Assembly: GCF_058153355.1 (NCBI RefSeq)
Contig: NZ_CM177019.1
Direction: 5' to 3' (one strand)
DNA length: 64,000 bases
The stretch's first letter is position 1, and the number at the start of each line of letters is the position of its first letter. Below are positions 30,320-30,711 of the stretch, piece by piece. Below the pieces are notes generated by a model that had not been told where the DNA came from, did no database searches, and was given only the letters and a program-made list of their open reading frames with translations. The translations under genes and the position numbers were made by a program.

Positions 30320-30711
30320 AGGGGCTTCATCCGAATTGCGCCATTGTTGCAATGGCGGTTTTTATTGTTTTTCACGACAGTAACCGCACCTACACTGTCA
30401 TGACATTGCTCGCCCCTATGTGTAACAAATAACCACACTGTGAATGTTGTCTTTAATCAATTGTAAGTGCATGTAAAATACCACTTTAGAGTTAGTCAGT
30501 ATCTTCCTCTTTTTCAACAGCATGCATAACTGCATGTTCCTCAAAGAATTAATCAACTTTTGTTGGTGGCCTTCAAAAATTACCCTGCCGTTTATTTGCA
30601 CAATTCTACTTTTGCGTGATCTGTCGCCCAAATACTAAACAAAACTGCCAATACCCCTACATTTAACGCTTATGCCACATATTATTAACATCCTACAAGG
30701 AGAACAAAAGC
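30320..30711. promoter_or_regulatory. Divergent nrfA / acs control region
   Basis: About 390-bp AT-rich intergenic region between divergently oriented nrfA and acs; both promoters are known to lie here. Individual FNR/NarL/CRP/IHF sites could not be placed confidently by eye. Confidence 0.6.

Follow-up and report, generated by a model that had tools for sequence, protein, structure and literature searches.

In Escherichia coli K-12, the divergent region between acs and nrfA, known from the work of the Busby, Browning, Cole and Wolfe laboratories, is a textbook example of signal integration at divergent promoters. Oxygen is sensed there through FNR, nitrite and nitrate through NarL/NarP and growth rate through Fis/IHF, and the further inputs are carbon status (CRP), nitric oxide (NsrR), iron (RyhB) and CsrA. 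Here we analysed the corresponding region in a 64,000-nucleotide (nt) stretch of DNA, hereafter the window, from contig NZ_CM177019.1 of assembly GCF_058153355.1. It separates the same two genes by the same 392 base pairs (bp) and differs from the K-12 region solely by two substitutions within the CRP II site of the main acs promoter. We have very little doubt that this is the E. coli acs-nrfA divergent regulatory region and that it works as described for K-12. Gene identities, coordinates, motifs at published spacings, near-identity to K-12 and conservation across genera were observed directly, while binding and its regulatory consequences are taken from the literature. The control region as such is already known. 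The region and its flanking genes are as follows.

30320..30711, no strand: whole nrfA-acs divergent intergenic region, G+C content (GC) 0.39, from the open reading frame (ORF) list and the K-12 alignment
28883..30319, minus strand: nrfA coding sequence (cytochrome c552 nitrite reductase), ATG at 30319, from the ORF list and RefSeq annotation
30712..32670, plus strand: acs coding sequence (acetyl-CoA synthetase), ATG at 30712, from the ORF list and RefSeq annotation

The initial annotation, made from the letters of the window, had described about 390 bp of AT-rich DNA between the two genes and called it a known, densely regulated region. Both statements held: the ORF list places a gap of exactly 392 bp between nrfA on the minus strand and acs on the plus strand, its GC is 0.365-0.39 in 200-bp windows and that of the flanking genes 0.52-0.62, and the sequence is the one on which the published work was done, but for two bases. 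Specifically, the alignment to K-12 MG1655 that had been suggested as a check was collinear, with 390 of 392 positions identical (99.5%) and no insertions or deletions. The only differences lie at 30566 (G; C in K-12) and 30569 (G; A in K-12). The nrfA promoter (pnrf), the acs promoters acsP1 and acsP2, the FNR, NarL/NarP, Fis I and CRP I sites, all three transcription starts, the -10 elements and the nrfA leader are identical to K-12, and experiments in K-12 therefore transfer almost base for base. RefSeq annotation also places nrfA and acs on either side of the identical intergenic sequence in E. coli R32_14_1F and of its counterpart in K-12. Among complete E. coli genomes, 5413 of 5426 hold the region, nearly always as a single copy, and 4047 records match at 99% identity or more. 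The region is thus E. coli core DNA.

For the transcription starts, we relied on published papers, independently of the motif scan. In Godfrey et al. 2017 (PMC5434802), the p+102A substitution turns the nrfA Arg3 codon AGG into AGA. Since p+102A must then be the third base of this codon, +1 of pnrf lies at 30412 and the nrfA ATG at +94. This agrees with the -93 boundary of the "entire 5' UTR" (untranslated region) construct of Wang et al. 2015 (PMC4666370), which spans -93 to +24 relative to the ATG. On the acs side, Olvera et al. 2009 (PMC2759082) printed the sequences of acsP1 and acsP2 and gave their starts as -224 and -20 relative to the acs ATG, and we located them at 30450-30488 and 30654-30692, respectively. 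A TAAAAT lies at 30474-30479, upstream of the acsP1 start.

30412, minus strand: transcription start (+1) of pnrf, derived from PMC5434802
30488, plus strand: start of the weak distal acs promoter acsP1, the last base of TCTTTAATCAATTGTAAGTGCATGTAAAATACCACTTTA (PMC2759082, Table 1), -224 from the acs ATG
30680..30692, plus strand: acsP2, with its -10 element TATTAT at 30680-30685 and its start at C30692 (PMC2759082), -20 from the acs ATG; invariant across genera

With the starts fixed, both strands were scanned with IUPAC consensus patterns; 500 shuffles that keep the dinucleotide composition served as controls, as did the remainder of the window. The initial annotation had flagged the region as a whole, proposed scans for FNR, NarL/NarP and CRP, and named the absence of any FNR or CRP match as the outcome that would speak against its reading. 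Matches to all three were found at the published distances from the published starts, including FNR (8/10) at -41.5 of pnrf and CRP I (7/10) at -69.5 of acsP2. On the nrfA side, the following elements were placed.

30447..30460, no strand: FNR site TTGATTAAAGACAA, 8/10 of TTGAT-N4-ATCAA, centre 30453.5
30479..30494, no strand: NarL/NarP 7-2-7 heptamer pair TACCACTttAGAGTTA, 14/16, centre -74.5 of pnrf
30420..30434, no strand: Fis I GGTTATTTGTTACAC, perfect match to GNNYRNNWNNYRNNC, centre -15 of pnrf, over the -10 element
30419..30427, minus strand: extended -10 element of pnrf, TGtTACACA, K-12 type with A at -7

The FNR site is the best FNR match in the region and is invariant in 25 sequences from four genera. 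Its position and that of the heptamer pair are those given for FNR (-41.5) and NarL/NarP (-74.5) at pnrf (PMC5434802), and acs/nrfA is among the bound targets in a chromatin immunoprecipitation-microarray (ChIP-chip) study of FNR (PMC1802558). By the position of this site pnrf would be a class II FNR-activated promoter, with its FNR dependence carried over from K-12 experiments on an identical pnrf. The same site is also centred at -34.5 of acsP1, which fits the published full repression of acsP1 on FNR binding. Searched as inverted TACYYMT heptamers with 2-bp spacing, the NarL/NarP pair is the sole match in the region at two mismatches or fewer, is equalled by 2.8% of shuffles and is nearly invariant across genera. 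Perfect matches to the Fis pattern occur twice in the region, at -15 of pnrf and at -59 of acsP2, where 0.62 would be expected. The first of these, Fis I, is conserved across genera in the 25-region alignment and is the site reported to overlap the pnrf -10 element (PMC5434802).

Taken over from K-12, these positions suggest how the nrfA side would operate. FNR bound at -41.5 would activate pnrf without oxygen, and NarL or NarP at -74.5 would raise nrfA expression with nitrite by displacing IHF, while Fis bound over the weak -10 element (TACACA) would shut pnrf off in rich medium. The same FNR site would cover the -35 region of acsP1 (start 30488) and thereby repress this weak divergent promoter. 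The 93-nt leader of nrfA would add post-transcriptional control by CsrA and RyhB.

The pnrf of E. coli O157:H7 has the same architecture and the same sites as the window, and the sole difference in the promoter falls at 30419, where O157:H7 has T at -7 (A on the plus strand) whereas the window keeps the K-12 base A. In enterohaemorrhagic E. coli (EHEC), the -7 change improves the -10 element and makes pnrf partly FNR-independent and less Fis-sensitive (PMC5434802). Because the window carries the K-12 base at -7, K-12-like strict control of pnrf is expected. Our confirmation adds nothing new about the region itself, but the strain is expected to regulate nrfA like K-12 and not like O157:H7. On a point of detail, the EHEC -10 element is printed as TATACT in PMC5434802, whereas the O157:H7 sequence reads TACACT, against TACACA in K-12 and the window; despite this discrepancy the altered position, -7, agrees with the Discussion of that paper.

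On the acs side, the elements placed belong to acsP2.

30612..30633, no strand: CRP I TTGCGTGATCTGTCGCCCAAAT, centre 30622.5 = -69.5 of acsP2, 7/10
30559..30580, no strand: CRP II TTTGTTGGTGGCCTTCAAAAAT, centre 30569.5 = -122.5 of acsP2, carrying 30566 C>G and 30569 A>G relative to K-12
30626..30640, no strand: Fis motif GCCCAAATACTAAAC, perfect match to the Fis pattern, centre -59 of acsP2, overlapping CRP I; conserved

The core of CRP I, CGTGATCTGTCGCCCA at 30615-30630, matches TGTGA-N6-TCACA at 7 of 10 positions, a match strength that by itself lies within the chance range, and the site is nearly invariant across genera. RegulonDB (PMC3531196) likewise places CRP I at -69.5 and lists a pair of activating CRP sites and three repressing Fis sites at acsP2. 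In addition, Kinnersley et al. (PMC2763269) located an A at -93 from the acs ATG within the first CRP site, and this base corresponds to 30619 in the window, inside CRP I. The core of CRP II, GTTGGTGGCCTTCAAA at 30562-30577, agrees with the CRP core at 6 of 10 positions and with the FNR core at 8 of 10. Its centre at -122.5 of acsP2 is reportedly that of Beatty et al. 2003. Matches of this level (four mismatches or fewer) occur 13 times against 10.3 expected, so that 6/10 is no better than chance, and only the right half of the site, CTTCAAAAA, is conserved across genera.

As in K-12, acsP2, whose start at 30692 is about 280 bp from that of pnrf, would be the main acs promoter and of class III, with cyclic AMP (cAMP)-CRP bound at the tandem sites CRP I (-69.5) and CRP II (-122.5) as its activator. 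Fis and IHF sites overlapping or lying between the CRP sites would counteract CRP. A further block, TTATTTGCACAATTC at 30591-30606 (about -94 of acsP2), lies between CRP II and CRP I, is conserved in four genera and probably represents a Fis or IHF site that has already been published.

Since both K-12 differences fall inside the 22-bp CRP II, we asked whether the layout could be K-12-like and the acs side nevertheless altered, the substitutions changing CRP affinity or creating FNR-like binding and so shifting the synergistic activation of acsP2. The allele is rare, since of 5409 complete E. coli records just 3 match exactly over the 76-bp segment around the substitutions, and its higher score against the FNR core than against the CRP core is in line with such a shift. 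On the other hand, no consensus base of the CRP core is gained or lost through the substitutions in the -122.5 register, conservation between genera does not extend to the left half of the site, and CRP I, which is proximal and better conserved, is unchanged. The allele resembles that of Escherichia sp. MOD1-EC7003 (L003), and outside E. coli a G is commonly present at 30566. We therefore consider an altered acs side unlikely. An effect of the substitutions on acsP2 is possible, but none is predicted from the sequence, because neither base is part of the CRP-core consensus in that register. As a rare natural allele in a weak distal CRP site of acsP2, it is possibly worth a small experiment.

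Several results weigh against the reading that the region works as in K-12, or at least lend it no support. FNR matches at two mismatches or fewer numbered 2 against 0.40 expected (fraction 0.066), which is not an enrichment over shuffles, and CRP matches at three mismatches or fewer numbered 3 against 2.08 expected from shuffles. Both CRP I and CRP II are poor matches to the consensus. The IHF consensus WATCAANNNNTTR had no match at one mismatch or fewer in the 392-bp region; weak matches with two mismatches lie near -48, -106 and -133 of pnrf. A sigma-70 consensus scan of both strands of the region returned no promoter and thus no independent support, although such a scan says nothing about pnrf and acsP2, which depend on activators and whose -35 elements are poor. 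Finally, with two substitutions in CRP II, activation of acsP2 may differ quantitatively from K-12. As the FNR and CRP counts are not above those of shuffles, the consensus scan alone neither proves nor refutes the control-region reading. The deciding evidence is where the best matches lie, namely at the half-integer positions known from the literature when counted from starts that were obtained independently, on a sequence with 99.5% identity to K-12.

We then compared the region across genera. An NrfA scan with one genome per species gave 34 loci, of which 25 syntenic acs-nrfA intergenic regions were aligned. The divergent arrangement, with acs upstream of nrfA, occurs in Escherichia, Citrobacter, Salmonella and Intestinirhabdus but not in Trabulsiella, Enterobacter sp. 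BIGb0383, Entomohabitans or Serratia. Outside Escherichia, the syntenic regions are 73-81% identical to the window. Conservation is concentrated in two modules. The first, 30415-30494, holds Fis I with the -10 element, the FNR site, acsP1 and the NarL/NarP pair and is nearly invariant; the second, 30570-30711, is conserved and takes in the right-hand part of CRP II, block TTATTTGCACAATTC, CRP I together with the Fis motif overlapping it, the core of acsP2 and the ribosome-binding site of acs. A variable stretch lies between them, in which a candidate NsrR site was also placed.

30495..30560, no strand: poorly conserved spacer between the modules in the 25-region alignment, holding weak IHF-like matches and the NsrR-like 11-mer
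30528..30538, minus strand: NsrR-like 11-mer AACATGCAGTT, one mismatch to AANATGCATTT, centre -121 of pnrf; candidate only

The NsrR-like candidate is partly conserved among the 25 regions, and 12.8% of shuffles do as well. An upstream NsrR site has reportedly been described at pnrf by Browning in 2010.

The closest relatives outside Escherichia, Salmonella and Citrobacter, share the divergent synteny and the FNR, NarL/NarP, Fis I, CRP I and acsP2 core blocks at an intergenic identity of 78-81%. Their upstream region differs from the window, and both carry an insertion of 37-44 bp in the spacer, between the NarL/NarP site and the acs-proximal module. This insertion has been noted for Salmonella, which is described as being without the stimulatory IHF III site (PMC5434802). 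Where acs does not adjoin nrfA, in Trabulsiella, Enterobacter sp. BIGb0383 and Entomohabitans (L021, L022, L024 and L025), the FNR site and a structured leader are retained; a NarL/NarP-like pair is also kept in Trabulsiella and Enterobacter sp. BIGb0383 and is absent in Entomohabitans. Since the pnrf module and the leader are kept where acs lies elsewhere, the pnrf module is an autonomous unit linked to nrfA. The two conserved modules and the variable spacer therefore describe a region that is physically shared yet evolutionarily modular. The initial annotation had called the control region shared, and in the physical sense this stands, as the FNR site of pnrf also covers the -35 region of acsP1; conservation, in contrast, shows two largely separate modules.

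A coding explanation for the conservation of the first module was also considered, as a small ORF runs through it.

30416..30472, minus strand: ytcB small ORF (18 amino acids, MHLQLIKDNIHSVVICYT; b4821 in K-12), from K-12 RefSeq annotation, overlapping the FNR site and the pnrf core

K-12 RefSeq annotates the ORF on the minus strand at positions corresponding to 30472..30416, and the window keeps it intact, so that protein-coding ytcB, and not regulatory DNA, might explain why the FNR site and the pnrf core are conserved. However, ytcB is not conserved outside Escherichia: its start codon reads ATA in Salmonella and most Citrobacter and the position of its stop shifts, while the DNA itself is nearly invariant and the bases that are conserved fall on the FNR, Fis I and -10 elements. 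We rejected this explanation, which we regard as extremely improbable, because the start and stop are lost or shifting where the DNA is conserved; the conservation is regulatory, not coding. Moreover, ytcB lies upstream of the pnrf start, therefore cannot be on the nrfA mRNA and would need another promoter. A literature search for ytcB returned only an unrelated Bacillus subtilis gene. A nitrite-responsive RNA locus described in PMC13370916 was likewise set aside, as it concerns Bacteroides and not the nrfA-acs region.

The remaining conserved part of the region is the long nrfA leader, whose role Godfrey et al. (PMC5434802) called unclear. Its elements are as follows, with positions counted from the pnrf start.

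30320..30412, minus strand: nrfA 5' untranslated leader, 93 nt, from the mapped start; conserved even without acs as a neighbour
30372..30403, minus strand: stem-loop 1 (SL1, +10..+41), from RNAfold, RNAalifold and compensatory changes
30339..30357, minus strand: stem-loop 2 (SL2, +56..+74), from RNAfold, RNAalifold and pair counts; a terminator-like hairpin on the plus strand
30358..30371, minus strand: A-rich single-stranded linker AAAAACAAUAAAAA (+42..+55), candidate Hfq site; its complement is the plus-strand T-run
30330..30332, minus strand: GGA motif in the nrfA ribosome-binding region CGGAUGAAG, possible auxiliary CsrA target
30399..30411, minus strand: predicted RyhB pairing site GAGCAAUGUCAUG (+2..+14), complementary to RyhB nt 35-47

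We aligned 24 leaders from eight genera, including genera without adjoining acs, and their RNAalifold consensus fold consists of the two stem-loops SL1 and SL2. Across the alignment, 95.6% of the cells in these helices are paired, against 27-60% in slid controls, both sides have changed at 8 pairs, and none of 500 shuffles reached the observed values. Read on the opposite strand, the same helices pair in 81.3% of cells, because 74 G-U pairs turn into A-C mismatches. The pairing is thus strand-specific, and the leader structure belongs to the nrfA mRNA. Consistent with this, folding of the nrfA-sense strand gave z = -2.18 relative to shuffles, compared with z = -1.28 for the plus strand, which is no better than shuffles.

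This strand difference also bears on the meaning of the plus-strand hairpin and T-run at 30339-30370, which could be a real intrinsic terminator, either the end of a short antisense RNA over the nrfA start or a barrier to antisense read-through into acs. A terminator scan indeed returned one plus-strand site, CGCCATTGTTGCAATGGCG followed by GTTTTTATTG (a GC-rich hairpin and T-run), whose stem and T/A-rich tract are conserved, and Rfam gave a weak MicA-like match (20.4 bits, E = 1.2) to the plus strand of 30288-30362. That score is far under the gathering score of 41, however, and the sigma-70 scan found no promoter-like site upstream on the plus strand. Given the strand-specific pairing and the unremarkable plus-strand fold, we rejected a terminator or antisense RNA, which appears quite improbable; the signal is the mirror image of the leader hairpin. 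In the Rfam scan as a whole (E <= 10), nothing reached the gathering score, and besides MicA the sub-threshold matches were SPRY4-IT1, a eukaryotic long non-coding RNA family, and the histone 3' UTR stem-loop.

Hfq typically binds through its distal face to consecutive A-R-N triplets. The linker between the stem-loops contains 4-5 consecutive triplets of this kind in most leaders and 2 or 3 in a few, which is only modestly above composition-matched shuffles, with per-sequence shuffle fractions from 0.014 to 0.97. CsrA is already known to regulate nrfA, and the tested CsrA site is the GGA at +101..+103 (PMC5434802), which corresponds to 30310-30312, just inside nrfA.

Control of nrfA by RyhB is also known. 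Wang et al. (PMC4666370) verified nrfA as repressed by RyhB at the translational level, using an nrfA fusion with only -93..+24 behind a constitutive promoter, and all such fusions responded. Beauchene et al. listed nrfABCDEF among anaerobic RyhB candidates. Pairing with the RyhB seed was assessed from the longest run of pairs and in windows of 20 nt; an RNAduplex computation with the whole RyhB molecule and the leader was dropped, as it gave long, unrealistic duplexes no better than those of shuffles. Between the near-invariant 5' end of the leader (+2..+14) and RyhB 35-47 there are 10 consecutive Watson-Crick pairs, one mismatch and 2 more pairs, and a 10-pair run with the seed is reached by 0.3% of shuffled leaders. 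The predicted site forms the best RyhB-seed duplex in the leader (-18.5 kcal/mol, versus -8.0 at the start codon). In all 24 leaders, 10-12 pairs are kept, mostly through wobble-compatible changes. The pairing site is a prediction from sequence, and a likely one.

A closely related known case is the RyhB-sodB pair, an example of iron-sparing control by a small RNA. The 11-mer AGCAAUGUCAU / AGCAATGTCAT is common to the 5' end of the nrfA leader and the sodB start-codon region and occurs once in the 64-kb window. In sodB, it spans the start codon and is complementary to the same RyhB segment as the nrfA leader. Unlike in sodB, the nrfA 11-mer lies at the very 5' end of its mRNA, some 80 nt before the ribosome-binding site, and this distance rules out simple start-codon occlusion as the RyhB mechanism at nrfA. 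One alternative is that RyhB remodels SL1, whose freed 3' arm UGUCGUG could then pair with the start-codon sequence UAUGACA; another is the recruitment of Hfq or RNase E. We tentatively propose that leader +2..+14 is a direct RyhB site which works together with SL1/SL2 and the A-rich Hfq-type linker, and from which RyhB represses translation at a distance of about 80 nt from the ribosome-binding site, a proposal that we hold to be a serious possibility, though somewhat short of probable. If true, it would assign a function to the long conserved nrfA leader, as an incremental refinement of known regulation. The RyhB site and the leader structure together make a concrete, testable model that is possibly worth a small experiment.

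The 5' end of the leader has one more feature. A perfect 10-bp palindrome, TGTCATGACA, follows shortly after the pnrf start, at 30398-30407 (+6..+15), and hardly varies between genera. It also encodes a mini-ORF, AUG UCA UGA, which is conserved, and it shares bases with the predicted RyhB site as well as with the 5' arm of SL1.

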